In this document: positions 1,381 to 60,053 of the stretch, piece after piece
How the letters are laid out: each line of letters starts with the position of its first letter
Position numbering within the stretch: position 1 is the stretch's first letter
Source: Eledone cirrhosa
Taxonomy: Eukaryota
NCBI GenBank assembly: GCA_964016885.1
Contig: OZ024757.1
Location: 17,794,001-17,858,000, forward strand
DNA: 64,000 nucleotides
Reading direction: 5' to 3'
Translations under genes and position numbers: made by a program
The notes under the pieces: model-generated
The model's database searches: none
Told to the model about the DNA's origin: nothing
The model's input: only the letters and a program-made list of their open reading frames with translations

Positions 1381-1602
1381 ATTTCTGTTTATTTGCCACT
1401 AGGGCACAAAAGAAAGGGACATGTACATGGGTGGGGGGAGTTTACATAAAAATCGAGTAAGAAAAATATAACAAACAAAATAATAACAAGAAGATCCTCA
1501 ATAGGGAGGGATCGTTTTGGGGTCACACACACCCCCGAAAAAAGTGTGCGACCCTTCTCCACGGGAGCACAAAGAGAGGGTGCTCCCTCCTTTCTGTTCC
1601 AC

Positions 1603-4600
1603 CTACAGGCTGAGGTAGAGAGAAGGCCCATTCACACGGGCCATTCTCGCAACTTTCACCCACCTTTCATAAAACTGGCTGGAGAGGAGCACCTCTCTCT
1701 CCATCCTGATCCTTCTTCCGAAATGGTATCGGAAGAAAAGGACCAGTTGTTGGCCGGAGAGAAAGGTGTCCGACCTCAGCCCTTTCAGACGCGTCCACCA
1801 TATAGCCTCTTTTACCATGGCTATTACACAGAGGAAGACCGCCTCTCCTTCATTTTTGAAGGGGGGAGGCGGCTTGATCGTTACAATGGACTCGGTGGTC
1901 AACCTAATTGGTCCCACCCGTGACAGCAGTTGTTCAACATAGCCCCACAGATCGGCAACGCCCGGGCAGTGCACCAATGCGTGCGCGACGGTTTCCTCGT
2001 CGCGCACGCATCTGGGACAGATCTTTTTCAAGGGGTCCCTACCCGGGCGCCCGTGTCTGTAGAGCTTATCCCGAACGGGCAGAGCCCCTCGGTAGCACTG
2101 CCAGGCCAAGGACTTCTGGAAGTTGTCCATAGGTCCTGGGCCGAAAGTCCTACCGAATAGACTGGCCAGTTCGTCCTCCTCCATGCCTAGGGCTTCTCCG
2201 AGGGCGTCGTCGCACCCGCTAACCACCAGCCCTCTATAGAATGACGAGGTGGAGTCTCCGTCGATAGCCGGGTCCGCCTGCCAGAGAGCCGTGAGCGCCT
2301 GGGCACACTCGGTGTGCCAGTCGCCCAGTTTTCTCGGTCTTTGCTTCACCCAGGACTGCAGCTCGGTGAGCGAGACGAGCCTCGGGAAGGCTCGCCTCAC
2401 AAACGGGGCCCACACCGGTTGACCGGTGAGGAATACGTGGAGGTGCCTTAGCCTCAATGCGTGTTTACGCATTTTTAGCCACGGCATCCCCAGCCCTCCT
2501 TTCAAAGGGTGTTGACAGCAGATGGATCTCCTCACTAGAGGAGACCTCTTCTTCCAAAGGAAATAAAAGAGGGCGCGCTCCATTTTGGCGAGGATCTCAC
2601 CCGGGCAAGGCACGACAGTCAAGCGGTAATAGATGACGGACGCTATGTAAGCGTTCGCCACCTCCGCCCGACCTTTTAGGGATAGTTTGCACTCGGCCCA
2701 CTTCTGGGTCAGTGCAAACACCCTATTCGTCACCTCACCCCAGTTTTTCTCCACCTGGAGGTCCGGTCCGAACCAGACCCCAAGCAACTTCACCGGGCCC
2801 TCCGTCCACCGTCCGACGATACCGTCGCACGACATCGCTTTGCCCCTCCACTCGCCGAGTTGCAAAGCGACTGACTTGTCCCGGTTCAGCTTAGCCCCTG
2901 TCAACCTTTCGTACTCCTCTAGTAAGGTGCCGATTGCCTCGATTTCCGAGGCGGTCGACACCATTACTGTTACGTCATCGGCGTAGGCCGACACCGCTTT
3001 GCGCAATCCCGGTTCCAAAGAGATGCCCTGCAACAACTCCAACTTCCGCAGTAATGGCTCGAGAGTCAATACATACAGAAGGGAGGAGAGAGGGCACCCC
3101 TGTCGGATGGAGCGGGTGATTTCGAACGGCTCCGAAAGGTAGCCGTTCACCTTGATTCTAGAGCAGATGCGGCTGCTGTGCATGGCAGTGATCCAGCCCC
3201 TGAAAACGGGTCCGAACCCAGCCGCCGCTAGCACCGCATCCAGGTAACCATGGTCCACCCTATCGAACGCTTTAGACTGATCTAAATTTATCAGGGCCCC
3301 ACCAAAGCCGGGTTCGTTCCCAACCCTCTCTATGATGTATCGCATGAGGTGGAGGTTGTCGTGGATGGACCTGGACGGGATAGCGCATGTCTGCGCATCT
3401 CCCACCAGGCCCCCCACGACAAGCGCCAACCTCTTCGCTAACACCTTCGCCAAAATCTTTAACTCTGCATTTAGCAGAGTTATGGGCCTAAAATTACTAA
3501 TGTCATCCCCCTTGTTCTCGTCCTTCCTCACTAGCGAGACTACGCCCTTGGTCACAGAACAGGGAATTCTCCCGTTCTGTTGCCAGTTGCAGTAGACCGC
3601 CTCGAGGAGATCGGGGAACAAGTCCGGCATATTAATATATAGTTCGTAGGGCAGACCATCGAGTCCTGGAGATTTGCGTTTGCCGCATAGGCTCAGCACG
3701 TCCCCTATTTCAGCAGCTGAGATCGGCCCGTCGCAGGACCTCGCCTCCCTGTCCGAAAGACGCGGCAGGCCGTCGAGGTATGGACCGAAATCCACATCTC
3801 CAACCGGCTCCCCGCCCCTCCCGAACAATTGGGCAAAGTGCCTTTGAAAGGCCTCGCACATTTGCTTAGGTTCAAGGATCAGCCGTCCATCCTGGTCTCG
3901 CAAAGACCGGATAGTGGATTTAATCCCACTTTTCGCTTCTGTCACGCGGGCCCAGCTAACAGCTTTGGTCCCCTCGTTTCCCAGAGCACGTATTTTGCTT
4001 CGGACAACGCAGCCTTCGTGTTTCGCGTCGAAGAACTGGTTCAAGACCGTTCTCGACGCTTGCACTCTGGCCACGTTGCCGCTTCTCATTGCCTCTTCAA
4101 CATTAACTACCAACTCCCTTTCCTTCCTATTTCTATCTGAGGCTAACTCCTTACTAACTCCTATTGAAACTACTCTAATCTCTCTTTTTAGAGAGCCCCA
4201 CCACCTGTTGTTGACGATGGCGCCCGTCAACTGCTCCTTAACTAAGGTTCTAATCCGGTCCCTGTAAGCTCTACTTGCCGGTAAGGACAAGTTGAGCTTC
4301 CAGTAACCGGGCCCCTGCCTATGCGTTCTATCAAGGTGGACTACGCAGGTCACTAACTTGTGGTCTGAATAGCCCACCATGAGCATTTCTGGACAACTTA
4401 AAAAGTCCCTATCCTTAATTCTAACTAAGAACCTATCTAGGTACGATCTAGATTGACCACTGTTATTTGACCAGGTCCAGGTTGGTACAGTCGGAAAATC
4501 TAGTCGGTATCTATCGGCCAGGTCGAATCGGCCGATTAACCCCTTAAGGCTGTTACACCCCCCTCTATCGGGACATGCCCCTACATAGTCCCAACGTGCA

Positions 4601-5040
4601 TCTAGGATACCATTCCAGTCCCCCACTAAAAGCAAGGAGCGGGACGTCCCTAGAAAAGTCTCCAGACGATGGAAGAAGTCCGACCGCATTGCCCCAAAAG
4701 GGGCGTATACGGCGACAAGCCTAAAAGCTTCGCCTTCGCCATTGCCAAGGTCCAGAACCACGAGTCGACCCTCCGGGTCCAAGTGTACCGTCTGTGTAGC
4801 GAGACCCAGATGTTTTTGCAGCAGAACGACAACCCCACCCCCACCTCCGGGCTGACAGAGAGATGCGTGCATCTCAAAGTCATCAAAGGTGGGGGTTAGC
4901 TGTCGCATGCTGCTGATCCGGGCCTCGCAAATAACCATCACATTTACACATTGTGACCTGAGGTCACTTAGAAGTTTAGCTTGCTTCCAAGGTGAGCCCA
5001 GGCCACGCGCATTTAGACAACCCACTCTTAAGACAGCCAT
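1603..5040 (-). CDS. Element A ORF2: APE endonuclease, reverse transcriptase and C-terminal CCHC (1145 aa, intact)
   Basis: APE motifs NARGL, GDWN, SYLDR, SDH. RT motifs PGLDG, RPITLLN, KAFDRV, RQGCPLS, YADD. Zinc knuckle CPRC-x7-H-x4-C. Confidence 0.95.
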   Translation of the reverse strand: MAVLRVGCLNARGLGSPWKQAKLLSDLRSQCVNVMVICEARISSMRQLTPTFDDFEMHASLCQPGGGGGVVVLLQKHLGLATQTVHLDPEGRLVVLDLGNGEGEAFRLVAVYAPFGAMRSDFFHRLETFLGTSRSLLLVGDWNGILDARWDYVGACPDRGGCNSLKGLIGRFDLADRYRLDFPTVPTWTWSNNSGQSRSYLDRFLVRIKDRDFLSCPEMLMVGYSDHKLVTCVVHLDRTHRQGPGYWKLNLSLPASRAYRDRIRTLVKEQLTGAIVNNRWWGSLKREIRVVSIGVSKELASDRNRKERELVVNVEEAMRSGNVARVQASRTVLNQFFDAKHEGCVVRSKIRALGNEGTKAVSWARVTEAKSGIKSTIRSLRDQDGRLILEPKQMCEAFQRHFAQLFGRGGEPVGDVDFGPYLDGLPRLSDREARSCDGPISAAEIGDVLSLCGKRKSPGLDGLPYELYINMPDLFPDLLEAVYCNWQQNGRIPCSVTKGVVSLVRKDENKGDDISNFRPITLLNAELKILAKVLAKRLALVVGGLVGDAQTCAIPSRSIHDNLHLMRYIIERVGNEPGFGGALINLDQSKAFDRVDHGYLDAVLAAAGFGPVFRGWITAMHSSRICSRIKVNGYLSEPFEITRSIRQGCPLSSLLYVLTLEPLLRKLELLQGISLEPGLRKAVSAYADDVTVMVSTASEIEAIGTLLEEYERLTGAKLNRDKSVALQLGEWRGKAMSCDGIVGRWTEGPVKLLGVWFGPDLQVEKNWGEVTNRVFALTQKWAECKLSLKGRAEVANAYIASVIYYRLTVVPCPGEILAKMERALFYFLWKKRSPLVRRSICCQHPLKGGLGMPWLKMRKHALRLRHLHVFLTGQPVWAPFVRRAFPRLVSLTELQSWVKQRPRKLGDWHTECAQALTALWQADPAIDGDSTSSFYRGLVVSGCDDALGEALGMEEDELASLFGRTFGPGPMDNFQKSLAWQCYRGALPVRDKLYRHGRPGRDPLKKICPRCVRDEETVAHALVHCPGVADLWGYVEQLLSRVGPIRLTTESIVTIKPPPPFKNEGEAVFLCVIAMVKEAIWWTRLKGLRSDTFLSGQQLVLFFRYHFGRRIRMEREVLLSSQFYERWVKVARMARVNGPSLYLSL

Positions 5041-5063
5041 GTTGGTGGCAAAGAAAGAGGCAC

Positions 5064-6821
5064 TTACCTCTCTGCGTCCCGGGGTTCGGGTCGCTCAGTT
5101 TCCATGGGGCTGGTGGCGGGGTTGATGGGTGGGGTGGTGGTTTGTGGTGGTGTGGGGGTACTGGTGTGTGGAGGGGTTGGGATCTTTGGAGTTGTGTGGG
5201 TGTTTGAGGAGGGGAGGGGAAAACCTTTCAGGAGGACGCGGTTGAGTGGCCTGGTGCAGGGTGGGCCCACGTCCTCAGGGTACATGTCTTTTAAAGTTTT
5301 AAAAATGTCAAGTGGGATTTTCACCATTTTCAGGTTAGGGAGCCCCATTGCCGTTACGAAATTCGGCCCTTCGGTTTGTATCGAAGGGTTGGTTTCTATT
5401 TTTAAAGTTAGGTTTTCATTGTTTTTGTTTATGTATGTGTATAGTTTTTGTGTTGTTGTGTTTGTTTTTGCTTGTTGTTGTTGAGTGAGTTTGCGTTTTA
5501 TTGTCTGTGTTGTGTTGTCAGGTGGGGTTATTTTTGTTGTTGTGGTGTGTGTACGTTTTTTTCTTTTCACTTTTTGGAAGGGAGCCCCCTCGTCTTCCGA
5601 CGATATGAGCTCCTCTTCCGTATTGGAGGGGAGGGGTATATCTCCGGGTTGTGTATGAACTGTTTTTGTATTTGTGTTCTGTGGGGTGGGGCTGGGTGGG
5701 ACCGTGTTTTGGGTTGTTTTCTTGAGCTGTTGTTGATGTTGTTGTTGTTGTGGTGGTGGTGGTGGTGGTGTTGTTGGTTTTTGTTGTTCTGGTGGTGATG
5801 GTAGTGTATTTTGTTGTTTTTGTGATGGTGGTGCTGGTTGTTTTTGTTGTTGTTGTGGTGTTTGTAGCAGTGGTTTTTTTGTTGTTAGTAGAGGGCAGGC
5901 CGTCCTCAGGTGCCCTCTGCCAGCGCAGTGGTAACATGAGGGTCTCCTGCCTTCCACTGTGATATTTATGTAGGTTCGCCCATCCAGTAGCACTCGGTCG
6001 GGTATTCCGGAGATTCTCTCAGGTGTCATCTGTAAGAGAACCTCCAGACTTTTCCCCCCGAACAGTCCACTGGTGGACTCCCCTGCTGAAATTAGTATGT
6101 CCTTATCTAGGTCGGTAAATCCTGTTAGGACGGACCAGATGTTAATTTCTGGCGTAGGGCTCCACATTCTTATCCTTTGTGTTCTTCTTCCTTTATATGT
6201 GGGGAAGAAGGTGTAATGTGGTGACACTATAGGTGCCACCGAATATTTCTGAGCCAGCATTTCGTCCTTCATTCAGACCATAATGCTGGCATACAGCTTT
6301 CCTCTTTGAATAAAGAGTATGTCATTTTTAATTTCTTTCAGAACCAGCTCGATTTGACTTTCGGTCAATTGCGCTGGCTTTCTCGTTTCGTTGGTTATGG
6401 TTCTGTAGCTTACGGTATTCTTGTAAATCTGTTCACGCACTTCTTCTGGGGAGTTGATCGTAAAAGAACCATCCTCCCCAAAAGATACGTATTTTCTAGC
6501 CTCTAGCAAATTTTCCTTGGCGTTCGTGATGTCAATGGCTTTGTATTCCGTGGCTCTCCTAAGTGTTTGGGCAAAAGAAATTTTGTCTTTGTTTGTTGTT
6601 GTAATGTTGTTGGTTTCCTTATTTGTGGTGCTATTTTTTTCTTCAAAATTAATTTTTTCATTTGAATTGAAATTCTTTTTTTCATTGGAGAGGAGGGGTT
6701 GTTCAACAGTTTGAACTGTTGTTCCCTCTTTCCCGCTTGTTTTTTTGGTCGGCGTGGCGTTCGCTTCCAATATGGCGATATCGTTTTCGACGATATCGTT
6801 ATCAACGATATCGATAAACAT
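5064..6821 (-). pseudogene. Element A ORF1 (gag-like, zinc knuckle) split by one in-frame TGA at 6273-6275
   Basis: The ORFs 6273-6821 and 5064-6272 are contiguous and in frame. Contains the CYHC-x4-H-x4-C knuckle and is homologous to ORF1 of elements B and C across the stop. Confidence 0.85.
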
Positions 6822-6995
6822 TTCTCAAATATTTATTTTTCACCCCAAAAGGGGTGAAAATATATTTACCCGACGTCTAGAGTCCCAGACTAGGGGTTAC
6901 AGTTAATTATACAAAATAATTCAAAAAAATCCACTCACAAAATTAGCAGGTAAAAATCCAAATCACAGAGCGATATGACACACGTCTACTATCCT

Positions 6996-27025: not shown

Positions 27026-27099
27026 GTTATTTCAAGTTGCTCCAGTCAATACATTTGTCATTTAATAATCCATTAAGTTAGCATTGTCAAATCTCGTGG

Positions 27100-32860: not shown

Positions 32861-33289
32861 CAAATTCATATTGAAACACTTTCTTGAGTTTGGAAATATA
32901 ACGTTGGTAGTCATGGTAACGATGAGACGTCAATAACATCACCTCCACCGACTCACTTAGCGCTAAAATAGAAACATGATGCTTTACATGTGGCATGGAG
33001 GTCATTTTTGTACCTCCTCGACCACATTCATCTGGAACTCCTTTCCGCTGCCTCTGATATTGCCTTTAGGGATTTGGTCCTTGTCTTTCCAGAGTAGAGA
33101 AGGCCGGTACAAACACCGACGCTCTAATAGCTTTGTCAATTCGTCTCCTGTAATATTCGCACACAATTGCTGTTTCAGTGTAGTTGTACAGCTTCAGTAT
33201 AAATTTATCAATAATACCTATATTGAATATATTAATGGTTAAGGAAGAATTAAGCAAAGATTACATCAACCGGGTGTTTTGTGGGAGAA

Positions 33290-35404: not shown

Positions 35405-35764
35405 CACTTTAGAAGGAGAATCAGAGTGGAGAGAGAGGCACTGCACCCCAGTAAATTTACTGAAAGGTGGGTGAATGAAGCGAAAATGGTCCGAGTGATT
35501 GAGCCTTCTCTGTTTATAAGCCTGTAGGTTAAAGAAGAGAACAAAAGGAAGAAGGGAGCACTTGTACAACACGCTCCTGAAGTTGAGGGTTGTTCTATCG
35601 ACGGGGTATGAAACAACCCATTTGTGACGCCTCCCCGCTATTGGGGATTTCGATTGTTGTAATTGTTTGTTTCAATATTTTTACACGACTGTATGTAAAA
35701 TCCCCGGCATGTGTCTTTGTATTGTCCCCTTTTCTTGTGCGCCCTTGTGGCAAATAAAGAAATC
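35405..35764 (+). mobile_element. 5'-truncated Tx1 3' end (ORF2 tail plus 3'UTR) ending in (TATC)n
   Basis: RRRIRVERE..ERWVN.AKM.RV..PSLFISL* and terminal CCCTTGTGGCAAATAAAGAAATC. Confidence 0.88.
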
Positions 35765-40618: not shown

Positions 40619-40619
40619 T

Positions 40620-40761
40620 TTTTGCTCAGAACACTCCCTGAAACATAAGTAGTATTACATGTGTAAAGTTTGAAAACAGTTGGTTGGGTGGTTCTCGAGT
40701 TTTAGAGATTCGAACTCTCACACACACACAGACAGACATCCTCAGTTTTATATATATAGAT
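40620..40761 (-). mobile_element. Helitron 5' fragment
   Basis: TCTATATATATAAAACTGAGGATGTCTGTC matches the start at 21989. Confidence 0.65.
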
Positions 40762-46300: not shown

Positions 46301-47220
46301 CCCCTGTTGGGGCGTAGACGGCTACTAGCCTGAAAGCATTGCCTTCGCTGCCGGTCACGTCCAGCACCACCGACTTACCTTCTGGGTCCAGGAAGATGGC
46401 CCGTATCGCGAGATCCAAGCCTCTCCGAAAAAGGACGGCAACCCCTCCCCCCGATCCTGGACGGTTGGGAGATGCGTATACATCGTAGCCGCCGAAGATC
46501 GGTGCGAAAGCTTGTGCTTCGGAGATTCTGGTTTCACTGATGGCCACCACATCTATGTTTAGTGACCTGAGGTCATTGAGCAGGTAACCCTGCTTCCAAG
46601 ATGACCCCAGGCCACGTGCATTTATACTGCCTATTCTGAGTACAGCCATGTTGGATGAGAAACGGGGCAAGTGAGAAAGGGTCACTTACCTTGTTCGTGT
46701 GGTGAAGGGACAGTAGAACCGCCCCTTTCGCTGGTCATGGGTGTTTCCAAGAGGATGTCAGTGTATATCCTCTTGGTAACCGACCGTCTGAAGTCTCCAA
46801 CTGCGTTGGGGAATTTTTGTTTTAAAGGTTTGTACTGTTCTATTGAGATTTCAATGATGCTTATGTTTGTCGGGAGAGTTCTTGGTGTTGGTGGGGTGTA
46901 GTAGTTTTTTTCTGTGATGTCTGTGTGTTGCTTTATATATTGTATGAGTTCTTTTTTTGCCATGTTTATGGCTGTGTACTTTTTGGCGGGAGGGGTGATT
47001 TTGTTGCTGTTTTCTTCTTGTTGCTGTTTGGTGTGTGTATCTTGTTGTGTTTGCGTTGTTGGTGTTTGTGGTGGTGATGGTGGTGGTGTGGCTGCAAGTT
47101 TCCTTGCTGCCTTTACCCCTCTTTGTATGCCTTCGCTTTTGGAGGGTGAATCTAAGGGTTTTTTTGTTTTTTGTTTTTTGTGGCAGACCGTTTGCCACTT
47201 GACAGTTTGCACTTGACCGT
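43351..47220 (-). mobile_element. Decayed Tx1 element D (ORF1 C-terminus plus frameshifted ORF2), 3'-truncated
   Basis: ORFs 46682-47251, 46257-46649, 45387-46241, 44886-45305 and 43248-44729 together tile a B-like element. Confidence 0.9.
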
Positions 47221-47977: not shown

Positions 47978-48034
<57 letters not shown>

Positions 48035-48295
48035 TTTCTTTATTAACCACAAGGGTTTACATAAAGTAGACATTAAGGACAGTGCAGGACAATGCAGGAC
48101 GGTACAAATGGGCATTTCTGCGTGTAAAAAAAACAAAAACAGAGGATGTAACAAAAATAACAATGAAAATAACAATGAAAAATTCCCCAATAGGGGGGAG
48201 ACTTCGGAGGGACATTTGTGGAGAAAGCCCAGTAAAAAGCCACAATGACCCTGACCACCAAGGCAAGTGCCCTCTCCCAGTTTTCCACCTTTAGT

Positions 48296-51200
48296 TTACA
48301 GATATATACTCAGAGTCGGCCCATTCACTCGGGCCATTCTTGCTTCTCTCACCCATCTTTCAACAAAATGCTGGGAAGAGAGCACTTCCTTCTCTACTCT
48401 GATTTTCCTTTTCAAATGAAATTTGAAAAAGTCAATCAGAGCATCACCGAAGAGGTAAGTGCTCGTCTTCAGCCCTTTCAAACGTGTCCACCATACTATC
48501 TCTTTCGCCATGGCCACCAGACAGATAAAAACTGCCTGCCCTTCCCGGCTAAAGGAGGAGGGCGGGGCAATCCTCACGATAGACTCAGATGATAGCTGGA
48601 TCCGTCCTAAACGCGACAGCAGGTGTTCGACATAAACCCACAAGTCAGCAATTTTCGGACACTGGACGAGTGCGTGCAGGACGGTTTCGTCGCCCTGCGC
48701 GCATCTCGGACATGCCCGGCTGACGGCACCTCCATGCCTGTAGAGTTTATCCCGAACTGGCAAGGCTCCTCGGTAGCACTGCCAGGCCAGAGATTTCTGG
48801 AAGTTGTCCATAGGCCCTGGCCCGAAAGTTCTTCCGAAGAGATTGGCTAGTTGATTTTCGTCGACGCCTAGAGTTTCCCCAAGTACGTCGTCGCTCTTCC
48901 CCTCCACTAATCCTCTATAGAACGCCGAGGTGGAGTTTCCACCGATCACATTGCCCGATTGGTCGAGGGCTGTGAGCGCCTGAAGACATTCCAGTCTCCA
49001 GGCGCTCCCTCTCGGTCTTCGCTTGACCCAGGACTGCAGCTCCGTCAAGGAAACGAGCTGGGGAAAAACGCGTCTAGCAAACGGCGACCACACCTGATCA
49101 CCGTCGAGGAAGAGGTGGAGATGTCGTAGCCTGAGCGCGTGCCTGCGCATCATCAGCCACGGCATGCCCAGCCCTCCACGTAGCGGGTGTTGACAACAGA
49201 TGGACCGCCTGACCATCGGAGCACGTCCCTTCCACAAAAAGCGAAAGAGCAAACGCTCCAGCGCAGTCAGGCGAGGCTTAGGACAAGGTACGACGGTTAG
49301 GCGGTAGCAGATGACAGACGCAATGTACGCGTTAGCCACCTCCGCTCGACCTTTCAGGGATAGCTTCCTCTCCGCCCATTTCTGGGTGAGAGAAGCCACC
49401 CTGCTCGTCACCTCGTCCCAGTTTTTGTCCGTCTGGAGGTCCGGACCGAACCAGACCCCTAGCAATTTAACCGGTCCGTCCGTCCAGCGCCCGACGACGC
49501 TGTTGGACGGCATGGACCTGCCTCTCCAGGTGCCGAGCTGCAGGCCCACTGACTTTTCCTGGTTGATCATTGCTCCTGTCACCGCTTCGTATTCTCTTAG
49601 TGTAGTGCCGATCGCCTCGATGTGTTTGGCGTTCGACACCACTACGGTGACATCGTCCGCATATGCTGACACGGATCTTCCGCATCCTAGTTCGCGCGGG
49701 ACCCCCCTCAACGTCTCCAGTTTGTGCAGTAATGGCTCGAGAGTCAATACGTACAAGAGGGACGAGAGGGGACATCCTTGGCGGACCGAGCGCATGATGT
49801 TGAACGGTTCCGACAGGTGACCGTTCACTCTCACCACAGAGCAGATGTCGCTGTGCATGGCAGCGATCCAGCCTCTGAAGACGGGCCCAAAGCCAGCCGC
49901 CCTCAGGACTGCCGCTAGGTAACGATGGTCGACCCTATCGAAAGCTTTCGACTGATCTAAATTGATCAAGGACCCACCCGTGCCAGGTTCCCTAGCTACC
50001 CTCTCTACGATGTATCGCATGAGGTGGAGGTTGTCGTGGATGGATCTGTCGGGAATGGCGCATGTCTGCGCCTCTCCCACCAGACCACCAACGACAAGCG
50101 CCAACCTCTTTGCTAGCACCTTGGCCAAAATCTTAAACTCTGTGTTTAGCAGAGTTATGGGCCGGAAATTTTCTATGTTATCCCCCTTGTTCGGATCCTT
50201 TCTCAGCAGTGCCACCGCTCCTCGGCTCACAGAACTGGGAATTATCCCGTTCTGTTGCCAGTTGCAGTAGACGTCCGCCAAGAGGCCTCCGAACAAGTCT
50301 GGCATCTGTACGTAAAGTTCATAGGGCAGACCATCCAAACCAGGCGATTTACCCCTTGTGCAGCCAGTCATTGCCTCCCGTACTTCAGCGGCTGTTATCG
50401 GCTTTTCGCAACACTTCGCCTCAGTGGCCGAGAGCCGCGGCAGTCCGTCGAGGTAGACACTAAAGTCCATCCCTCTACCCGGCCCCCCGCTGCCCCCGAA
50501 CAGCTGAGTGAAGTGTCGCTGAAAAGCTTCACACATTTGCCCGGGATCGAGTAGCATGCGCCCGTCGTGGTCCACCAAAGACCGGATCGTGGCTTTGTTG
50601 CCACGACGCGCCTCCGCCACTCGGGCCCATTGAACGGCTTTCGTCCCCTCGTCTCTGAGAGCACGCACCCTAGCTCTGACAACGCAGCCTTCGTGCTTTG
50701 CATTGAAGAATTGGTCAAGGGCCAATTTCGCCGCAAGCACGTCGGTCGCAATGCCTTTGCTAAGCGCCTCGTCTAATTTTCTAACTAGTTCTCCCTCTGC
50801 TCTATTTTTCTCTATTGCTAAAGCCTTACTAAACCTAATCGATTCTATTCTAATCGCTCTTTTCAGAGCAAACCACCACTTGTTGTTGACGATGGCCCCC
50901 GTCAACGCCCGCTTAACTAGTTCGCTAATCCGGTCTCTGTAGGCCTTGCGCGCTGGTAAGGACGCGTTTAGCTTCCAGTAGCCGGGTCCTCGTCTATGAA
51001 GCCTATCTAAGTCAAGCACACAGATCACGAATTTGTGGTCCGTGTAGCTGACTATCTTGAATTGTGGACAGCCTATGCTAGACCTATCTATTTCCCTACA
51101 AAATAATCTATCTAGATATGATCTGGATGACCCTATGCGGTTTGTCCAAGTCCACATTGGCACATTCGGGAAATCCAATCGGTACCTGTCAGACAGTTCA

Positions 51201-51715
51201 AAACGCCTGAGCAGGTTGGTGAGGCTCTTGCACCCTCCACCCCTATCCGCTAATCCCACACAGTCCCAGCGTGCATCTAAGATCCCGTTCCAGTCGCCCA
51301 CTAACACTAAAGAGCGCGACGTTCCAAGAAAGGTCTCCAGACGCCGGAAGAAATCAGGCCGCCCTGCTCCTGTCGGGGCATAGACGGCCACTAGCCTGAA
51401 AGCTTGCCCGTCTCCGCTGGTCACGTCCAGCACCACCAGCTTACCCTCTGGGTCCAGGAAGATGGCCCGTATGGCGAGATCCAAACCTCTCCGAAAAAGC
51501 ACAGCAACTCCTCCACCGGATCCAGGACGGCTGGGAGATGCGTACACATCGTAGCCGCCGAAGATCGGTGCGAAGGCCCGTGCTTCGGAGATTCTGGTCT
51601 CGCTGATGGCCACTACATCTATGTTTAGTGACCTGAGGTCGTTGAGCAGGTGACCCTGCTTCCATGACGACCCCAAGCCACGCGCATTTATGCTGCCTAT
51701 TCTGAGTGAGGTCAT
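48296..51715 (-). CDS. Element B ORF2: APE, RT and CCHC (1139 aa, intact)
   Basis: APE and RT catalytic motifs present (GDWN, TDH, YADD) and CPRC knuckle. Confidence 0.95.
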   Translation of the reverse strand: MTSLRIGSINARGLGSSWKQGHLLNDLRSLNIDVVAISETRISEARAFAPIFGGYDVYASPSRPGSGGGVAVLFRRGLDLAIRAIFLDPEGKLVVLDVTSGDGQAFRLVAVYAPTGAGRPDFFRRLETFLGTSRSLVLVGDWNGILDARWDCVGLADRGGGCKSLTNLLRRFELSDRYRLDFPNVPMWTWTNRIGSSRSYLDRLFCREIDRSSIGCPQFKIVSYTDHKFVICVLDLDRLHRRGPGYWKLNASLPARKAYRDRISELVKRALTGAIVNNKWWFALKRAIRIESIRFSKALAIEKNRAEGELVRKLDEALSKGIATDVLAAKLALDQFFNAKHEGCVVRARVRALRDEGTKAVQWARVAEARRGNKATIRSLVDHDGRMLLDPGQMCEAFQRHFTQLFGGSGGPGRGMDFSVYLDGLPRLSATEAKCCEKPITAAEVREAMTGCTRGKSPGLDGLPYELYVQMPDLFGGLLADVYCNWQQNGIIPSSVSRGAVALLRKDPNKGDNIENFRPITLLNTEFKILAKVLAKRLALVVGGLVGEAQTCAIPDRSIHDNLHLMRYIVERVAREPGTGGSLINLDQSKAFDRVDHRYLAAVLRAAGFGPVFRGWIAAMHSDICSVVRVNGHLSEPFNIMRSVRQGCPLSSLLYVLTLEPLLHKLETLRGVPRELGCGRSVSAYADDVTVVVSNAKHIEAIGTTLREYEAVTGAMINQEKSVGLQLGTWRGRSMPSNSVVGRWTDGPVKLLGVWFGPDLQTDKNWDEVTSRVASLTQKWAERKLSLKGRAEVANAYIASVICYRLTVVPCPKPRLTALERLLFRFLWKGRAPMVRRSICCQHPLRGGLGMPWLMMRRHALRLRHLHLFLDGDQVWSPFARRVFPQLVSLTELQSWVKRRPRGSAWRLECLQALTALDQSGNVIGGNSTSAFYRGLVEGKSDDVLGETLGVDENQLANLFGRTFGPGPMDNFQKSLAWQCYRGALPVRDKLYRHGGAVSRACPRCAQGDETVLHALVQCPKIADLWVYVEHLLSRLGRIQLSSESIVRIAPPSSFSREGQAVFICLVAMAKEIVWWTRLKGLKTSTYLFGDALIDFFKFHLKRKIRVEKEVLSSQHFVERWVREARMARVNGPTLSIYL

Positions 51716-51750
51716 GTTTAAAATAGAGTGGAAAAGATGGGAAAGACCAC

Positions 51751-53847
51751 TTACCGTACTTTTGGTAGAGGAGGGATGGTTTTTACATCCCTTTTCACTT
51801 GATCGTCTGGTGAAGGGACCGTTGAATCGTCCCTTCGGCTGGTCGTCGGCTCTTCTAAGAGAATGTCTGAGTATACTCTTCGATTGATGGTTCCTCCTAG
51901 GTCCCTGAAATCACCAACTGCGTTGGGGAATTTCGTTTTAATATTTGTGTATTGTTTCTGTGCTATTTTTAGCAGTCTTATGTTAGTTGGCGTTTTGATT
52001 GGTGCTGGTATTATGTAGTCCTGTTGTGAAATGTCTGTGTGTTCAATTATGTAAGTCATTAGTTTCTTGTTGTGTGTATTTATTGCCGTGCATTTGTTTT
52101 TCTGGGGGTGGGGTGTGGTTCTGCTATTTTCTTGTCGTTGTTGCTGGGTGTGTGTGTTTTGTTGTTGTGTTTGCGATGTTGGTGCTTGTGGTGGTGGTGT
52201 TGAAGGTGTTGTTGGCGGTGGGGTTGTCGCCGGTGGTGATGGTGGCGCTAGTGTGGGTGGTGATGGTGTTGGTGTTGTTGCTGCTGTGGGTCTCTTTGCA
52301 GTAGACTTTACCCTTTTCTCATTTCTTTCCTCCCTTTTCAAAGGCGACGATGCGCTGCTTCTGCGTTTGTGCCTTCTTACGACCTTTTGCCATCTCTCTC
52401 CCACCTCACACTCCATGTCTGGTTCTGTGAGGTCGGGGAGGGGTACCAACTCCACTCTTTCACTTGTTGTTGTTGGTGATGTTTGCACTGGAGTCTCTGT
52501 TGCAGCTGCATTTGGTATTGCTGTTGTTGTTGTTAGTATTTCCACTGCTGCTGCTGTTTTTGATTTCCGTGGAGTGGGTATGGGTGCCACGGGCCTATCG
52601 TTCCTGGTTGCCGCTTGTCCTGTTGCTGGTAGCCGTGGAGCCGGATTCGGAAGGAGGGGGGTTTTCTCCTTTCTCAGGGTCTTCTCGTTGCAGAAGGCCC
52701 TGAGGTGAGTCTTCGATCCACAGCGAAAGCATTTCGGGCGTTTGCCCTCAACACTTATGGGCAGTTGAGTGCCGTTATCGAAGTCTATCACATCCGGGAT
52801 AGCTTCGATGCACTCCTGGTTGGTTTGGATTAGCATCTCAATGGAGGAGCCGACCCAATCTTCTCTTACTTTTTTCTGTACTTGCAGTACAGTTGTTTTG
52901 TCCTCGATTCCGACGAGGACAGACGCGGCCAGCCAAGAAGGGGTCATTCCGGGGGTGACGTGGGTCAGTTTGACCCTCACAATTTTTTGCCCGCAGTAGG
53001 AGGGCACCAACACCATTTCCTCGCTCCTTAGGGTCACTACTGATTGGGCCTTTGCCTCCTGGGGTGTGGCAAAAAGTACGTCTACGGTGGCGTATTTTTT
53101 GCCTCGGGTGATGTGCGTTTTCCGCTGCCACACAGACCCCAAGGCTTTTTGTATTTGGGCCTCTGTGGCTCTTTCCACCCTACGGGATTTTGTACTTACT
53201 GTACGGTACGTGACCGTACAGTGCTCTTGGGTTTCGAAAAAATTTTTCGCTGCCTTGCAGATTGCTCGGTGTCCGTTCTTTGTCACCATCTTCTTCGCTT
53301 CCTCTAATTCCTCATTTGTTATGAGGATTGTTTCCAAGTTTTTCGCAATACCTGCAAATGAGATTGGTTTTTCTCTGCTGTTGTTGTTGTCGTCAGAGCT
53401 GCTGGTACTTTTGTTGTTGCTGCAGGTACTACGACTACTGCCTCCGCCGCTGTTGCTGTGGTTGTTGTTGGTGTTGCTGCTGCTAATGCTGTTGTTGTTT
53501 ATGCTGCTGGTGATGCTGTTGCGGCTGCTACTGTTGTTTTCATTGTCACTGTTGCTGTTGTTATTACGGCTGCTACTGCTATTATTCCTGACGTCAGACG
53601 AATGAACTGGGTTTTCGTATTTCCCGCACACCTGTTTCGTCGCTGTCGTCGTCGTCGTGGAGAAACCTTGCACGCTTTGCACGAGACTTTTCTTTTCTTT
53701 CGTCACTTGCGAAAGAGAAGGGAGGGAGAGAGACACATTTAAAGAAGGGAGGGAGAGAGACAATCTTCTCTCTGCTGTAGTGATGATTGAGGAAGAAGAA
53801 GACGGAATGAGTGGGAGTGACGTATGAAATTTCTTTTTCGTAGCCAT
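51751..53847 (-). CDS. Element B ORF1 (gag-like, CFRC-x4-H-x4-C knuckle, S/N-rich and P/T-rich tracts)
   Basis: Open frame. The first ATG (MATKKK) is at 53847. Homologous to ORF1 of A and C. Confidence 0.85.
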   Translation of the reverse strand: MATKKKFHTSLPLIPSSSSSIITTAERRLSLSLPSLNVSLSLPSLSQVTKEKKSLVQSVQGFSTTTTTATKQVCGKYENPVHSSDVRNNSSSSRNNNSNSDNENNSSSRNSITSSINNNSISSSNTNNNHSNSGGGSSRSTCSNNKSTSSSDDNNNSREKPISFAGIAKNLETILITNEELEEAKKMVTKNGHRAICKAAKNFFETQEHCTVTYRTVSTKSRRVERATEAQIQKALGSVWQRKTHITRGKKYATVDVLFATPQEAKAQSVVTLRSEEMVLVPSYCGQKIVRVKLTHVTPGMTPSWLAASVLVGIEDKTTVLQVQKKVREDWVGSSIEMLIQTNQECIEAIPDVIDFDNGTQLPISVEGKRPKCFRCGSKTHLRAFCNEKTLRKEKTPLLPNPAPRLPATGQAATRNDRPVAPIPTPRKSKTAAAVEILTTTTAIPNAAATETPVQTSPTTTSERVELVPLPDLTEPDMECEVGERWQKVVRRHKRRSSASSPLKREERNEKRVKSTAKRPTAATTPTPSPPTLAPPSPPATTPPPTTPSTPPPQAPTSQTQQQNTHTQQQRQENSRTTPHPQKNKCTAINTHNKKLMTYIIEHTDISQQDYIIPAPIKTPTNIRLLKIAQKQYTNIKTKFPNAVGDFRDLGGTINRRVYSDILLEEPTTSRRDDSTVPSPDDQVKRDVKTIPPLPKVR

Positions 53848-54081
53848 GTTGTTTTTTTGTTTAAAATGAAATTTTGGGTACAAAACCCCAATAACTGGTT
53901 ATTTAACCCCGAAGGGCCAAATAACGGACAGAAAGACCCCTCTCACGAGGAGGAGGGTGTCTTTATCAACAATTTGGTTCAAGTTTTAAACAATTTACAA
54001 TTGTTTTAACGGTTAAAAATTACTATACCTTACAGAGCCGAGCCTCCGTCAACCATGGCATTCAATAATAATAATAATAAT

Positions 54082-57000
54082 GATTTCATTTATTAGCCAC
54101 AAGGGCCGACATGTAGGGGACAATACAAAGACAGGGACAGTGGGGGTTTACAATAAGGTCGAGTAAAAGTGCACAATGGCAAGACTAATTTAACAATGAA
54201 AATATAAAATATAAAATAAACTATGCAAAATACAACAAAATAAATTCCCCGATAGGGGGTGGACGACCCTGGGGTGATTCGGGTACCCCACCAATCCTGA
54301 ACCACCCTGCGTTTCTAGGGCACCCAGGAGAGCACCCCTCTCCTCAAGTTAGCTAGCCTATAGGCGCATGGTCAGAGTAGGCCCATTCACACGAGCCATT
54401 CTCGCCACATTCACCCACCTTTTAGCAAATGTACTGGGGGGCAGCACTTCTCTCTCCACCCTCACCCTCCTTTCCAGGTGAAACTTGAAGAAGTTGATGA
54501 GGGATTGGCCGAAGAGAAAAGTGTCTGTCTTTAGTCCTTTCAACCTGGTCCACCATATAATCTCTTTCGCAACTGCCACCAGACAGAGGAAAATGTCCTG
54601 CTCTTCCTGACCTAAGGAAGGTGGCGGCTCGATCTTCACTATGGACTCGGCCGATAACTGGATTCGTTCCACACGCGACAGTAGCTGTTCGACATAACTC
54701 CACAAGTCAGTAATGCACGGACATTGGACAAGTGCGTGCAGAACGGTTTCGTCGTTCTGTGCGCATCTTGGGCAGGTCCGTCTGACAGCACTTCCGTGCC
54801 TGTAGAGTTTATCCCGAACCGGCAGTGCCCCCCGGTAGCACTGCCAAGCGAGGGATTTCTGGAAATTGTCCATCGTCCCCGGCTCAAAAGTCCTCCGGTA
54901 CAGACTGGTCAGTTCGACTTCGTCGAGGCCCAAAGCTTCTCCGAGTGCGTCATCGCACTTGCCCACCACTAATCCTCTATAAAACTTGAGAGTGGAAGTT
55001 CCACTGATCGCATTGCCCGCTTGGTAGAGGGCAGTGAGTGCCTGGCAACATTCCAGGTGCCAGTCACCCAGTCTCGGTCTCTTCTTGACCCAGGACTGCA
55101 GCTCAGTCAAAGAAATGAGCTGCGGAAAGGCCCGTCTGATAAACGGCGACCACACCTGTTCACCATTGAGGCAGAATATCTGGAGATGTCGCAGCCTCAA
55201 CGCATGTCTGCGCATCATTAGCCACGGCATGCCCAGCCCTCCGTGTAGAGGGTGCTGGCAGCAGATGGACCGCCTCACCAACGGAACTTGTCCCCTCCAC
55301 AAGAATTTGAAGAGGAGCCGTTCCAACTTGACGAGGCGCGGACGGGGGCAAGGCACGACTGTTAGGCGGTAATAGATGACGGACGCGATGTACGCATTCG
55401 CCACCTCCGCGCGACCTTTCAGTGATAGCTTCCTCCCAGCCCATTTTTGGGTGAGACTGGCTACTCTGCTCGTTACCTCGTCCCAATTCTTTTCCACCTG
55501 GAGGTCTGGTCCGAACCAAACCCCGAGCAACTTTACTGGTCCGTCCGTCCAGCGCCCCACGACGCTGTTGGACGGCATTGGCTTGCCTCTCCAGGTTCCG
55601 AGCTGCAAGCCCACCGACTTTTCCGGGTTAAGTTTGGCTCCTGTCAACCTTTCATATTCTTTCAATAAGGTGCCGACCACCTCGATTTCTGAGGTGTTCG
55701 ACACCATCACGGTGATGTCGTCCGCATAAGCCGACACCGCCTTTCCACGTCCCGGTTCGAGCGGGATGCCCTGCAACAGCTCCAGCTTCCGCAGTAAAGG
55801 CTCGAGAGTCAATATGTACAGAAGGGAAGAGAGAGGGCACCCTTGACGGACCGATCGGGAGAGCCGAAATGGTTCCGAGAGGTGGCCATTAACTTTGACC
55901 ACCGAGCGTGTGCCGCTGTGCATTGCAACGATCCAGCTTCTAAAGACAGGGCCGAAGCCAGCTGCTTTGAGGACAAACTCCAGATACCGATGGTCGACCC
56001 TATCGAATGCTTTCGATTGATCTAAATTGATCAGTGCCCCACCGAAGCCAGGTTTACACCCTACCCTCTCTATGATGTATCGCATGAGGTGGAGATTGTC
56101 GTGTATGGACCTGGCTGGGATTGCGCAAGTTTGCGCCTCCCCAACCAAATCCTCGACGACAAGCGCCAATCTCTTTGCTAAAATCTTGGCCAAAATCTTA
56201 AACTCTGTGTTGAGCAGAGTTATGGGCCTGAAGTTGTCTAATGTATCCCTCTTGTTCTCGTCTTTCCTTATCAGCGTCACCACTCCCCTGCTCACAGAAC
56301 TGGGAATACTCCCATTCTGCTGCCAGTTACAGTAGAGTGCTTCGAGGAGTTCGGAGAACAAGTCTGGCATATTTACGTAAAGCTCGTAGGGCAGGCCATC
56401 CAAGCCTGGTGACTTGCGCCTCATGCAGCCGACAAGGGCGTCCTGAATTTCGGCTGAAGTAATCGGCCTTTCGCAGCGCTCAGCGTCGACCGTCGAGATG
56501 CGCGGCAAGCCGTCAAGGTAGGGACTGAAATCCGCTACTCTCTCTGACCCGCCACTCTCCCCGAACAACCGAGCAAAGTGCTGGCGAAAGGCCTCACATA
56601 TCCGCTTGGAATCGCTTATCTCGTGTCCGTCTCGGTCCGCCAAAGACCGAATTGTGGTTTTATTACCACGCTGCGCCTCCGCCACACGGGCCCATCGAAC
56701 AGCTTTAGTTCCCTCGTTTCTCAGCGCACGCGCCTTAGCTCTGACAATGCAACCTTCGTGTTTGGCATTGAAGAAATGGTCTAATGCCATTCTCGCCGCT
56801 AGCACGTCAGTTGCGATGCCACTACAAATAGCCTCGTCTAACTTATCTACCAGCTCCCCCTCCTTTCTATTTTTCTCTAACGCTAGTTCTTTGCTGAACT
56901 CTATCGAAGTTACTCTAATCTCTCTTTTGAGAGCCCCCACCATCTGTTGTTGATGATCCCCCCTGTCAACTTTTGCTTAACTAACTTATTGACTCGGTCC

Positions 57001-60000
57001 CTGTAAGCCTTACGTGCCGGAAATGACATGTTCAGCTTCCAGTAACCCGGTCCTAACCTACGCGTTTTATTTAGGTCGACCGTACAGATCACAAATTTGT
57101 GATCTGAATAGGCGACCGTTTTAAAAAGTGGACAGCCCACACTATTTCTATCTATTTTTCTAATGAAGATTCTGTCTATATACGATCTAGATGACCCCAT
57201 TCGGTTGGTCCATGTCCATACTGGCACATTGGGGAAATCTAGTCGATACCTGTCAGACAGTTGGAACTGGCTGAGTAGGTGCTTGAGGCTATTACACCCC
57301 CCGCTCCTATCGGCTACTCCCACACAATCCCAGCGTGCGTCTAAGATGCCATTCCAGTCCCCCGCTAACAGTAAAGTGCGAGACGTACCCAGAAAGGTCT
57401 CCAGGCGCCTAAAGAAGTCAGGTCGTCCGGCCCTTGTAGGGGCGTAGGCGGCCAGCAGTCTAAAGGCACCACCTTCGCTACTGCTCACATCCAAGACCAC
57501 CAACTTACCGTCCGGGTCCCGGAAGATCGACCTTACCTCGAGATCCAGTCCTTTCCTAAACAGCACTGCCACCCCACCCCCCATTCGCGGCCTGCTAACA
57601 GATGCGAAGATCTGATAGTCATCGAAAATGGGGGCTAGTGCACGAGTGTCGGAAATTCTGGTCTCGCTTACGGCAATCACATCCATTTCCAGCGACCGGA
57701 GGTCGTTGAGCAGGCGACCCTGCTTCCAGGGTGACCCCAGACCGCGAACATTTAAACTTCCTACTCTTAATATGGCCATATTGGTAAGCTAAGAGAGAGA
57801 GAGGGAAGGTTTACTTACCTCCCGGGTCTTGTGAAGGTCGGGTGGTTCGACCTCCATGGTTGGTGGGGTTTCTTTTGGGAACCCCTTTAAAAGTCTTGAT
57901 GTGGGTTTCACATTCGGGTTTCCCACGTCTTGAGGAAAGCTCTCTCGAATTTCTTTGAAAGAATTGAGTGACATTCGGACCAGAAGCAAATCTTCTGGCA
58001 CGCAAAATGTGCTCATTTCAAAAATCTCCCCCTCTGTTTGAATGTCCTCGCTTCGCGCTAAGAGGGCCATCAGTTTATCGTTGGCCCTTCTGACAAGCAC
58101 GAAGTTTTTAACATTTTGTTGGTGTGGTTTTATTTGTTTTCGTTTTGGTGAAGGTGGCGGCGATGGTTTTGGTGGTGTTGTTTCGGGTATGTCTATGTTT
58201 GTTGTAGGTGTGGTGTCTGCAATTTCAGGTATTTGTGTGTTTATTTGTACTTGTGTTTGTTTAGGTTGTTTGCGTTTCGGGGATTGTGGAGGTGGTGTCG
58301 ATGTTGCTGATGGTGCTGATGTTATTGGGGAAGTGTCTGCGTTAGTGGTGTCTGTATTTTTTGTTGTGTGTGTTTTTGTGTTTTGTAGGGGCTTTTTTTT
58401 TGTGTGAGTTTTCTCTGTTCTTTTGCACTTTTGGGTTTTCCTTCATCTTCGCTGCTGGAAGACAAAGGGTCTGTGTCTGTGAGTGTCTCTGTGTCTGTGT
58501 GTGCGTTTATTTTTTTTTTTTCTATGTATATAGTTGGGGGGGGGGGGAGAGCTTTCCTCGTTTTCTCCTTGGATTGGTTTTGGTGTTGGTGGTGATCCGG
58601 CTGCTTTTGATGTTGGTGTCCGTGTTTTTGTTGATGTTGTTTTTGGTGGTGGTGGTGGTGCAGCTTTCCGTGCTGACACTGGCGTTGGCAACAAAGGAGG
58701 TTTGCGACCCCCTGCATTTTTGCGCTGAGGGCAGAAGGCTTGAAGATGCGTGGCTTCCCCGCAAACGAAGCAGCGTGGCCTTCTTCCGTCAATCATTAGT
58801 TGGATTGTTGTCCCGTCCTGCAGGCGGGCAAAATCTGGGATGTTATTTATATCCTCCGGTTTCATTTGGAGAAGAATCTCCAAATCCATTCCGGACCAGT
58901 CTTCTCTCTCTGTCCTTTTGATGTCCAGGAGGGTGGTGTCTGTCCCCTCCTCGATTACGCATCCCAGCAGCCACCATATGTTCATTCCTGGTGGGATGCT
59001 GGGAATGCGTACCTTCACTGTCCTTTTACCCATATAGGACGGATGCATGATAATGCGTTCCGTTCTGCAGGGATCACCGAGTGCTTAATAGCGAGGGCCT
59101 CGGATTTGAACAGTACCGAGATGGTACCGAACTGTTTGCCTCTTGCTTTGTACTCTATGTTACTTCCGATGTACTCCAACGCAGCCTCTACCTCTGCTTG
59201 GCTCGCAAGTTCCACTTTTCGTGTCTGCACCGAAATACATCGAAAGAGCACCGTCCTCCTTTGCATGGCCGCTATTGCCTCGTCCGGGATGGTTAGGTTT
59301 GCCCAGGACTTCTCCCGTTTAATTAGCCTCCACGCTTTGGCTAACTGTTCGTCTTAATCGCTAATATCAATATCGATATTCAATAAGCGCTTTGTTTTTG
59401 CTGCTGCTGCTGCAGCAAATGTGGTGTTTCTGATGCTCTTATTGTTGTTGTTGTCATTCTTGCTGTTGCCACCGCCATCCTTGTTTACATTGAAGCTGTC
59501 GGTGTTTTTGTCGTTATTGCTCTGAGTTGTTGTGGTGGTGGTGGTGGTGGTGGTGGTGGTGGTGGCGGTGGTGGTGATGTCGTTTTCAGATGATTCTGCT
59601 GCTATGCCAGAAGATTATGATGGTAGCTTTTTAGTTTTGCCTTCACATTCAGTAGAGTGGATGACAGGCATGACTGTAGCCGTCGTAGTCGTGGTGAAAT
59701 CTGCAGTGGCTGCCTTTAAACTTTTGACCTGAACGTTGTTTACCGTTTCAAGGTCGAAAATTTCTATAATTTTCTTTTGGTGAATTTGAGGAGGAGAGGG
59801 TGCCTATTATTATATGGCCGCACATGTGTGAAGACAGACAAGTCTGCGGGGGAAACGGTTCGTAGCTTTAAGTTGTTTTAAAGTGTCTTTTTTTTGTATT
59901 TTCTTGTCATTAACGAAACTTAAGGTACACATCTTGATTTAAAGAGAGGGATACCTCTCAATATTCGGGTTTTAAGCCCGAATATTCAGATTTATTTTTA

Positions 60001-60010
60001 AAATCTTCGA
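54082..60010 (-). mobile_element. Tx1/L1-clade element C, near full length, frameshifted in ORF2 (~56940) and ORF1
   Basis: ORFs 56910-57779 and 54358-56943 tile ORF2. ORF1 pieces at 57789-59700 include the CFVC knuckle. 3' end CCCTTGTGGCTAATAAATGAAATC. Confidence 0.92.
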
Positions 60011-60053
60011 AAAAAAAAAAAAAAATAAAATAAAATAATAATAATAATAATAA

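Follow-up and report, generated by a model that had tools for sequence, protein, structure and literature searches.

The 64,000-nt stretch of the Eledone cirrhosa genome (3.0 Gb) analyzed here, positions 17794001-17858000 of contig OZ024757.1 and termed the window below, contains three full-length long interspersed nuclear elements (LINEs) of the L1/Tx1 type (A, B, and C), a partial element (D), and several 3' fragments. The sequence architecture of these elements is solid and unusual. The first open reading frame (ORF1) ends at a splice donor motif, the spacer between ORF1 and ORF2 is complementary in a lineage-specific manner to the sequence following the ORF2 stop, and an AG near the end of ORF2 would close ORF1 within 4 residues when joined to the donor. 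We regard the removal of the whole ORF2 as one intron, which was proposed in the first-pass annotation of the window, as the best single reading of the sequence, albeit unproven. More specifically, we favor, at slightly less than even confidence, a copia-like splice that would yield an ORF1-only RNA and be gated by the pairing of the two complementary arms (hereafter the zipper), amounting to a kinetic switch between removing all of ORF2 and keeping it. From the sequence, we infer that U1 binds the donor, that the helix forms in cells, that splicing takes place, and that the ratio of the two proteins is affected. The more general proposal, that in a clade of octopod LINEs the entire reverse transcriptase (RT) gene is an alternative intron, gated by a co-evolving 3.4-kb zipper that hides the donor and brings the ORF2 start to the stop, is put forward more tentatively.

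ORF2 of these elements bears the Pfam domains PF03372, PF00078, and PF13966, and its closest relative among the PDB structures is human L1 ORF2p (E-value of 2e-53), R2 being matched only at 9e-21. No match was found in Pfam for ORF1 of element A, in which a CX2CX4HX4C knuckle was recognized by eye; Atlas led to CCHC clusters only at 0.90. The assignment to the L1/Tx1 type is based on the domains and the structural match, and the label Tx1 itself is provisional, following the first-pass annotation. The best 40 genome matches of element A are all 99-100% identical and often lie in tandem arrays of ~5.6 kb. A 20-mer from the ORF1 end of B has 1,222 copies in the genome, a degenerate motif for the ORF2 start occurs 7,004 times, and the 3' ends of the A3-A7 type alone number 7,343. 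For the comparisons below, 20 representatives were hand-picked after further lineages had been fetched, and 17 of them carry intact donors. A4b, A7, and D2 were excluded from the helix test, and A7 and D2 also from the phase test, because of a damaged donor or frame.

The motif GTAAGT was re-read exactly at the minus-strand ORF1-ORF2 junctions of A, B, C, and D where the first-pass annotation had placed it (Table 1), and motifs of this type are present in all close families; their absence from most related families had been listed there as a finding against the proposal. The U1 5' splice-site consensus is MAG/GTRAGT (slashes mark the splice site). Eighteen of the 20 representatives match it at 8-9 of the 9 positions, and the remaining two are damaged copies. 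Among the first 30 loci in genome order, 29 bear GTRAGT at the junction. In the 68 distinct ORF2 starts from the loci that had not been selected for donor variants, GGTRRGT was found 60 times, and the eight negative cases comprise seven damaged versions of the site and one 5'-truncated copy. Across the 17 lineage representatives, G-1, G+1, T+2, G+5, and T+6 are invariant, and the family-level changes are restricted to purine-to-purine exchanges at positions +3 and +4, namely GTGAGT in A4 and GTAGGT in A6.

The frame of ORF1, anchored on a common ME-x-x-x-P motif, places the donor in three phases, as had been claimed for the four elements of the window. Phase 2 is seen in A1-A3, A5, A6, A8, B1, and B2 (in A and B, ORF1 terminates at the TAA within the motif), phase 1 in A4, C1b, C2, C3, and D, and phase 0 in C1. 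A private deletion or a copy error in element C was ruled out as the source of phase 0, which is a genuine family state found in 8 of the 30 loci. The donor is thus retained in phases 0 and 1, in which ORF1 does not terminate at its TAA, and in the C lineages, in which it is bulged from the predicted helix. Of the 456 four-fold silent positions of ORF2, only 20% are unchanged throughout these clades, so that four or five invariant non-stop bases in the donor are unlikely by descent alone (~0.2^4 to 0.2^5 by a hand estimate). As A, B, C, and D descend from one ancestor, the donor displays conservation and not four independent origins. The flanks of the motif had been described as unalignable, which is true only in part: the C-terminal ends of ORF1p can be aligned, and all the spacers consist of a pyrimidine tract closing with CAACATG or a similar sequence. 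Altogether, the identity of the motif as a 5' splice site recognized at the sequence level is well supported.

Several further observations concern the donor. A second, equally good donor, derived from Gly-Lys codons, lies ~310 nt inside ORF2 in B2, C1, C1b, D, and D2; in the window, such sites (AG/GTAAGT or CG/GTAAGT) lie at 46378 in D and 57508 in C on the minus strand, and none exists in A or B1. Two A3-like loci (L336 and L338) carry a tandem duplication of ~75 nt of the ORF1 C-terminal segment with a donor only past the last repeat, and the B1 donor lies ~37 nt farther on than that of the sister lineage D.

The spacer between ORF1 and ORF2 is complementary to the 40 nt past the ORF2 stop. 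In the 17 elements, the predicted duplex energies range from -24 to -49 kcal/mol, with z-scores of -2.1 to -5.8 against 300 dinucleotide shuffles each; the value for D (-47.2 kcal/mol) was obtained with a D-type 3' arm from another locus (L077). When the 5' arm was compared with ~720 windows, the post-stop window was the top partner in 15 of the 17 elements, A5b and A8 being the failures. The arms vary by lineage, each tending to fit its own partner (mean diagonal residual of -8.6 kcal/mol), and the own-clade pairing ranks first among the 120 clade permutations of five pooled groups. The entire spacer is covered by the predicted helix, which takes in the complete donor in B, D, and A5 and has TAA bulged in A1-A3 and C2-C3. 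Its inner end falls ~4-5 nt before the ORF2 ATG and at the ORF2 stop regardless of the spacer length (27-47 nt), except in B, so that outside B the helix would set the ORF2 stop beside the ATG context. The 3' arm lies past the acceptor, in the exonic portion; the helix would therefore hide the splice sites and not join them. This complementarity, which extends over the donor and is not mentioned in the first-pass annotation, may account for some of the conservation seen where ORF2 ends. In lineage C2 (L330, L319, and L320), the sequence following the ORF2 stop, TAGGTAGGTAAA, nearly copies the donor context GGTAAGTAAA, and a splice at this position would regenerate a donor-like site.

The five ORF2-end contexts quoted in the first-pass annotation were read as given, with the addition that the site at 35527, quoted there with no strand, lies on the plus strand. 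The candidate acceptors are CAG, AAG, or TAG in the A clade and TAG in C and D, and the candidate intron of A extends from 5067 to either 1610 or 1603. No common branch point was recognized by eye. With the first AG within the final 20 nt of ORF2 as the acceptor, the spliced product would close the structural ORF at once, adding 4 residues or fewer in 17 of the 18 lineages (9.7 expected for random phase), whereas the AG chosen in the first-pass annotation does so in 10 of the 18 lineages (6.0 expected). Of the junctions proposed there, 57819/54357 adds two residues; 5068/1602 and 51755/48288 are probably misplaced, adding 71 and 77 residues with a hydrophobic stretch, and the alternatives 5068/1609 and 51755/48308 add only 2 and 4. 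In the phase-2 lineages, the end of the stop codon is preceded by an in-frame AG at a distance of 7 nt in the A clade (CAG/AAG) and of 13 nt in the B clade (GAG), and the ORF2 stop would be reused. The C and D lineages of phases 0 and 1 have no such AG and possess an in-phase stop 1-2 codons past TAG. We regard this phase-fit of the stops as suggestive, not decisive. The frames that the misplaced junctions would open (1602-1390 in A and 48288-48060 in B, minus strand; 71-77 codons) encode a hydrophobic stretch following a common Pro-Ile-x-acidic motif and, if used, would supply a membrane-anchor-like tail; they are probably a by-product of the U-rich 3' untranslated region (UTR), as A3-A6 do not keep them open.

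Table 1. Coordinates of the elements and of the observed and predicted features in the window.
Feature	Position	Strand	Description
Element A (lineage A1)	1381..6995	-	Full-length L1/Tx1-type LINE flanked on both sides by (TCTG)n microsatellites; very young family
ORF1 of A	5064..6821	-	CCHC knuckle; stop TAA falls within the donor motif
ORF2 of A	1603..5040	-	1145 aa; apurinic/apyrimidinic endonuclease (APE), RT, zf-RVT (Pfam)
Donor of A, AG/GTAAGT	5062..5069, motif from 5067	-	ORF1 phase 2
5' arm of A, predicted	5044..5076	-	ORF1 end, donor, pyrimidine spacer to ORF2 ATG context; duplex -34.7 kcal/mol, z -3.1
Candidate acceptors of A	1603..1612	-	CAG ending 1610 (+2 residues, ORF2 stop reused); stop TAG ending 1603 (+71)
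3' arm of A, predicted	1568..1603	-	Purine-rich, immediately past ORF2 stop
A5-lineage 3' end, 5'-truncated	35500..35570	+	Stop TAG 35525-35527, then purine arm
Element D (donor, spacer, ORF2 ATG)	46647..46691	-	ORF2 of this copy is broken near 43350; 3' end absent from the window
Donor of D, AG/GTAAGT	46689-46684	-	Phase 1
Element B (lineage B1)	48033..54063	-	ORF1 53847-51751 and ORF2 51715-48296 both intact; flanked by (ATT)n repeats
Donor of B, CG/GTAAGT	51754-51749	-	Phase 2
5' arm of B with donor	51727..51755	-	Whole donor predicted paired; duplex -40.7 kcal/mol, z -4.9
ORF2 end of B	48262..48311	-	GAG ending 48309 (+4), AAG ending 48289 (+77); stop TAA 48298-48296
3' arm of B	48289-48262	-	Past ORF2 stop
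Element C (lineage C1)	54083..60010	-	Full length; this copy has a broken ORF1 and one ORF2 frameshift
Donor of C, AG/GTAAGT	57818-57813	-	Phase 0; ORF1 stop 57791-57789
5' arm of C with donor	57783..57827	-	Donor core mostly looped out; duplex -45.6 kcal/mol, z -3.8
ORF2 stop and candidate acceptor TAG of C	54360-54358	-	+2 residues
3' arm of C with ORF2 stop	54322..54360	-	Duplex prediction
C-type 3' end, 5'-truncated	60690..60780	-	Stop TAG 60734-60732, then purine arm

In the favored reading, U1 would occupy the donor during the transcription of ORF2. Once the ORF2 end emerges, some of the transcripts would commit to a splice, with either the stop TAG or the first AG within the final ORF2 codons as the acceptor, and the resultant ORF1-only mRNA of ~2 kb, which carries a short 3' UTR and the poly(A) signal of the element itself, would raise the level of ORF1p relative to ORF2p. 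A spliced gag RNA is made by Drosophila copia, and the ORF1-only mRNA would act in the same way. In the other transcripts, the 3' arm, made seconds later, would pair with the spacer and cover both the donor and the G of the acceptor. Such zipped transcripts would remain full length with the ORF2 start and stop adjacent to each other and would be used for both ORF2 translation and retrotransposition. The spliced RNA, having neither the 5' arm nor ORF2, would not be copied back to the genome under strict cis preference.

A series of findings weighs against this proposal. The sites that the first-pass annotation called acceptor-like do exist, but the term was generous: only 8-13 of the 17 upstream positions are pyrimidines, and the abundant B clade, of which ORF2 ends with TAA, offers only GAG or AAG and no YAG. 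The test for an acceptor signal at silent sites was negative, the final 12 codons of ORF2 showing no extra constraint (a value of 0.70 versus the average of 0.55, a level reached by 17% of windows). A4 is the exception to the first-AG rule, as 46 residues would be added there, and fits with TAG instead. As the lineages are related, the phase test amounts to about four independent clades and a chance expectation of ~1 in 13 to 1 in 81 by a hand estimate. As for the zipper, the short A arms pair better with the B 3' arm than with their own, and competing local hairpins exist in the 3' arm, leaving a net gain of 9-28 kcal/mol. The global minimum free energy fold (3.9 kb) recovered the helix in one of the three elements folded, B (33 long-range pairs), and not in A or C. 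Moreover, with an exonic 3' arm, the helix would not juxtapose the donor and the acceptor in the usual way. Finally, the unspliced RNA already possesses an ORF1 stop, and ORF1p thus needs no splicing.

The absence of spliced genomic copies is a further point on the same side. Twelve exact-pattern searches of the genome, spanning A1-A6, B1, B2, C1-C3, and D, were made for a non-donor sequence after the ORF1 end or for what precedes the 3' UTR, with anchors of 16-24 nt (copies altered within an anchor escape), and returned 1, 0, 3, 28, 75, 11, 10, 5, 0, 19, 0, and 0 hits. None of these 152 hits is a precisely ORF2-less copy, despite the thousands of element copies in the genome; the lack of such copies is one of the findings that the first-pass annotation had itself listed against its claim. 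All of the hits are explained by point changes, by deletions that are small or internal, by insertions and an inversion, or by the longer ORF1 end of another lineage. The look-alikes rejected comprise three point variants (L031, L033, and L034), two small deletions (L032 and L333), an insertion (L107), and a deletion reaching the endonuclease region (L344). Since a mere ~270 nt would separate the junction from the 3' end, the missing copies argue against an abundant spliced RNA mobilized in trans. The fetched loci contain 22 distinct internal deletions, each seen at one locus only and all away from the donor, and these one-off events, as signs of strict cis preference, soften the argument from absence. 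The B and C copies frequently bear large internal deletions of this one-off kind, often at short stretches of microhomology (loci including L061, L065, L076, L086, L089, L094, L102, L118, L130, L139, and L230). In four runs of unrecorded kind, no joint between the donor and the ORF2 end of element A was seen among the 15 joints listed (111 further joints exist). One contig from these data (run X4; 268 nt, depth of 14.5) crosses the A donor unspliced and, the kind of the run being unrecorded, counts neither way.

The strong donor and the weak acceptor can also be read as a site at which the U1 small nuclear ribonucleoprotein (snRNP) binds and is rarely or never spliced, protecting the long transcript against premature cleavage and polyadenylation or stabilizing it in another way, with the zipper serving to block splicing. 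We consider this rather unlikely, albeit it accounts for a perfect donor combined with a weak, unconstrained acceptor, as well as for the missing spliced copies. A downstream donor suppresses an upstream poly(A) site in HIV-1, and in 15 of the 20 representatives AATAAA or ATTAAA occurs within 500 nt upstream of the donor, but A2 and A4 have no such hexamer there. ORF2 itself is nearly devoid of poly(A) hexamers (0-3 per element, with no position common to all), and the phase-matched stops are not predicted by U1 binding alone. In EVD, a Ty1/Copia element of Arabidopsis, U1 both enables the subgenomic shGAG RNA and blocks early termination (PMC5580714). The suppression of premature termination by U1 in EVD is a precedent for U1 binding without splicing, and since U1 serves both roles there, splicing and U1 binding need not exclude each other. 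The zipper could alternatively be functional on its own in translation or ribonucleoprotein assembly. By making the whole spacer double-stranded and setting the ORF2 stop beside the start, it would restrain re-initiation or label complete RNAs for use in cis, with GTAAGT persisting as just a stop codon plus a part of the helix. This is unlikely in our judgment. The constant inner end of the helix at the ATG context and ORF2 stop (except in B), the three donor variants corresponding to the three stop codons in phase-2 lineages, and the A/G exchanges at +3/+4 that preserve the pairing with U all agree with it, and the initiation of SART1 ORF2 is influenced by RNA structure (PMC3894237). Nevertheless, the other arm positions diverge freely with compensation but GT..GT does not, and the motif is retained in the C lineages, in which TAA is neither a stop codon nor paired.

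Two other splicing outcomes can be weighed against the removal of the whole ORF2. The donor is far stronger than the acceptor at the ORF2 end, and its true partner might lie elsewhere, as a cryptic site within ORF2, in the U-rich 3' UTR, or in the DNA flanking the element. Good-looking AGs do exist deeper in the 3' UTR of single lineages (B near 48117), but none is common to the lineages, the 60732 fragment has none between the U-rich tract and the poly(A) signal, and none of the 22 distinct internal deletions begins at the donor; such a partner is thus very unlikely. Least probable of all is a short intron (41-59 nt) running from the donor as far as an AG within codons 4-7 of ORF2, which would drop the ORF1 stop and the ORF2 ATG and fuse the two proteins. 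The pyrimidine tract after the donor, and the in-frame AGs available in phases 1 and 2, would suit such an intron, but the tract is accounted for by the zipper, the ORF2 ATG is conserved, and the intron of A would be merely 41 nt long. This option was largely rejected, as the phase-0 family C1 has no in-frame AG, the first AG of D is out of frame, and an RNA that can be retrotransposed in cis left no genomic copy among the 75 B and 11 A hits. The sole junction of this kind, in L333, is a microhomology deletion.

Relatives of ORF1p, named from Octopus sinensis and Argonauta hians, often end as the donor would dictate, which is indirect evidence at the protein level only. Of the 24 relatives recovered by a profile search, four have C-termini of GK or GKS, including GAB1605864.1 of Argonauta hians, three end with R, and two carry GE followed by read-through into the spacer. 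Word-based searching for spliced ORF1p C-termini in the protein collections returned nothing. Two Logan sequences (P0083 and P0084) have a Gly-stop end, which fits a spliced product and a phase-2 donor alike, and P0083 is only ~55% identical to the families of the present genome. In XP_036364761.1 (P0091), GK is followed by a different tail, and this C-terminus could derive from a spliced RNA. Among 36 distant L1/Tx1 loci of metagenomes, GTRAG occurs within the 130 nt before ORF2 in six (~9 expected by chance), and none displays the layout of donor, tract, and ATG (23-35% identity in those with an ORF2 start). The viral collection returned a single match, which is irrelevant.

The Ty1/Copia shGAG system resembles the present LINEs in the conserved U1-type donor at the end of the structural gene, in the short mRNA for the structural protein that would result, and in that U1 may act without splicing (PMC5580714). 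On the other hand, the Ty1/Copia element has long terminal repeats and a single gag-pol frame, in which splicing makes the gag stop and is coupled to early termination (PMC5580714), in contrast to the LINEs of this study, which are bicistronic and have their own ORF1 stop, a candidate whole-ORF2 intron of 3.46 kb, a terminal poly(A) signal that would be retained, and a predicted helix. Thus, the present LINE is not a Ty1/Copia shGAG system and, at most, works like copia.

HAL1 (half-L1) elements are ORF1-only, non-autonomous genomic families. They encode ORF1 without ORF2, as the spliced RNA would, but no family with such an ORF2-less junction was found here. Introns in LINE transcripts are known from L1, Tad, and the antisense transcript of TART (PMC1636488). 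Human L1 RNA likewise contains working splice sites, and the spliced copies termed SpIREs (spliced integrated retrotransposed elements) use sites in the 5' UTR and ORF1, are seen as dead ends, keep ORF2, and number 131 of 6,609, ~2% of the full-length copies (PMC5860796), whereas the donor described here lies at the ORF1 stop, is conserved across lineages, and has left no spliced copy that we found. Kibi, Koshi, and the crocodilian Tx1 elements share with the present family an L1-like ORF2 architecture and insertion into microsatellites, here (TCTG)n/(TCTA)n and (ATT)n, and neither a splice bracket nor a zipper is mentioned for them in the available part of the text (PMC4494074). ORF2 translation of SART1 and L1 is controlled by termination and re-initiation, and local structures near the ORF1-ORF2 junction modulate the ORF2 output (PMC3894237); here, in contrast, the partner is 3.4 kb away, past the ORF2 stop. 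A full-text literature search (without supplements, Repbase, and closed journals) found no report of a LINE with ORF2 as an intron or with a zipper between start and stop, and the string 'splic' is absent from the main texts of two papers on octopus repeats (PMC13282606 and PMC9115989).

How bicistronic LINEs set the ratio of ORF1p to ORF2p and select the RNA to be copied is only partly understood. In mammals, the high ORF1p and low ORF2p levels are attributed to inefficient re-initiation. If the proposal is true, a conserved donor and a long-range helix around ORF2 would provide a third solution, one that arose independently of those of copia and the retroviruses. RNA folding would then decide, in a LINE, whether an RNA is spliced or remains genomic, a choice also made by retroviruses and copia. 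The proposal supplies exact junctions and base pairs in a very young and abundant family. Even without splicing, no co-evolving zipper that links the start of ORF2 to its stop was encountered in the literature searched. A strong donor in thousands of copies could also influence host transcripts.

Regarding the copies in the window and their surroundings, ORF1 of copy A is split by a private nonsense codon at 6275-6273 (minus strand), where the other 30 of the 31 loci checked have a sense codon. The donor is present in the full-length A5 copies L304 and L306, which belong to the lineage of the truncated 3' end on the plus strand. The 3' tails are (TCTG)n or (TCTA)n in the A-type copies and (ATT)n in B, C, and D, and a microsatellite of one of these types directly follows the element in 12 of the 20 representatives. 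Head-to-tail arrays were observed both with mixed families (47980-60050 in the window) and with single families at a period of 5.6-6.1 kb (G000:C2:402.73-402.76 Mb, C3:358.73-358.78 Mb, and C1:423.36-423.42 Mb). These arrays are consistent with the insertion of the elements into one another's microsatellite tails.

Copy D breaks near its 3' end and is joined at 41300-43350 to an oppositely oriented, A-like ORF2 fragment, by either an inversion or a nested insertion. At 60380-60500 (minus strand), the 3' end of the 60732 fragment is duplicated in inverted orientation, giving a hairpin that encloses the poly(A) signal. An unrelated RT element, which we take to be probably of the RTE type, is present twice, at 8488-12057 and 23760-26207 (minus strand); the two copies share an identical 3' part, and the second bears a PHD-finger match. 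A minisatellite array of ~6 kb at 27069-33065 contains three very long open frames (1,900+ codons), and further arrays occupy 18172-19081, 39400-40700, and 61450-64000.

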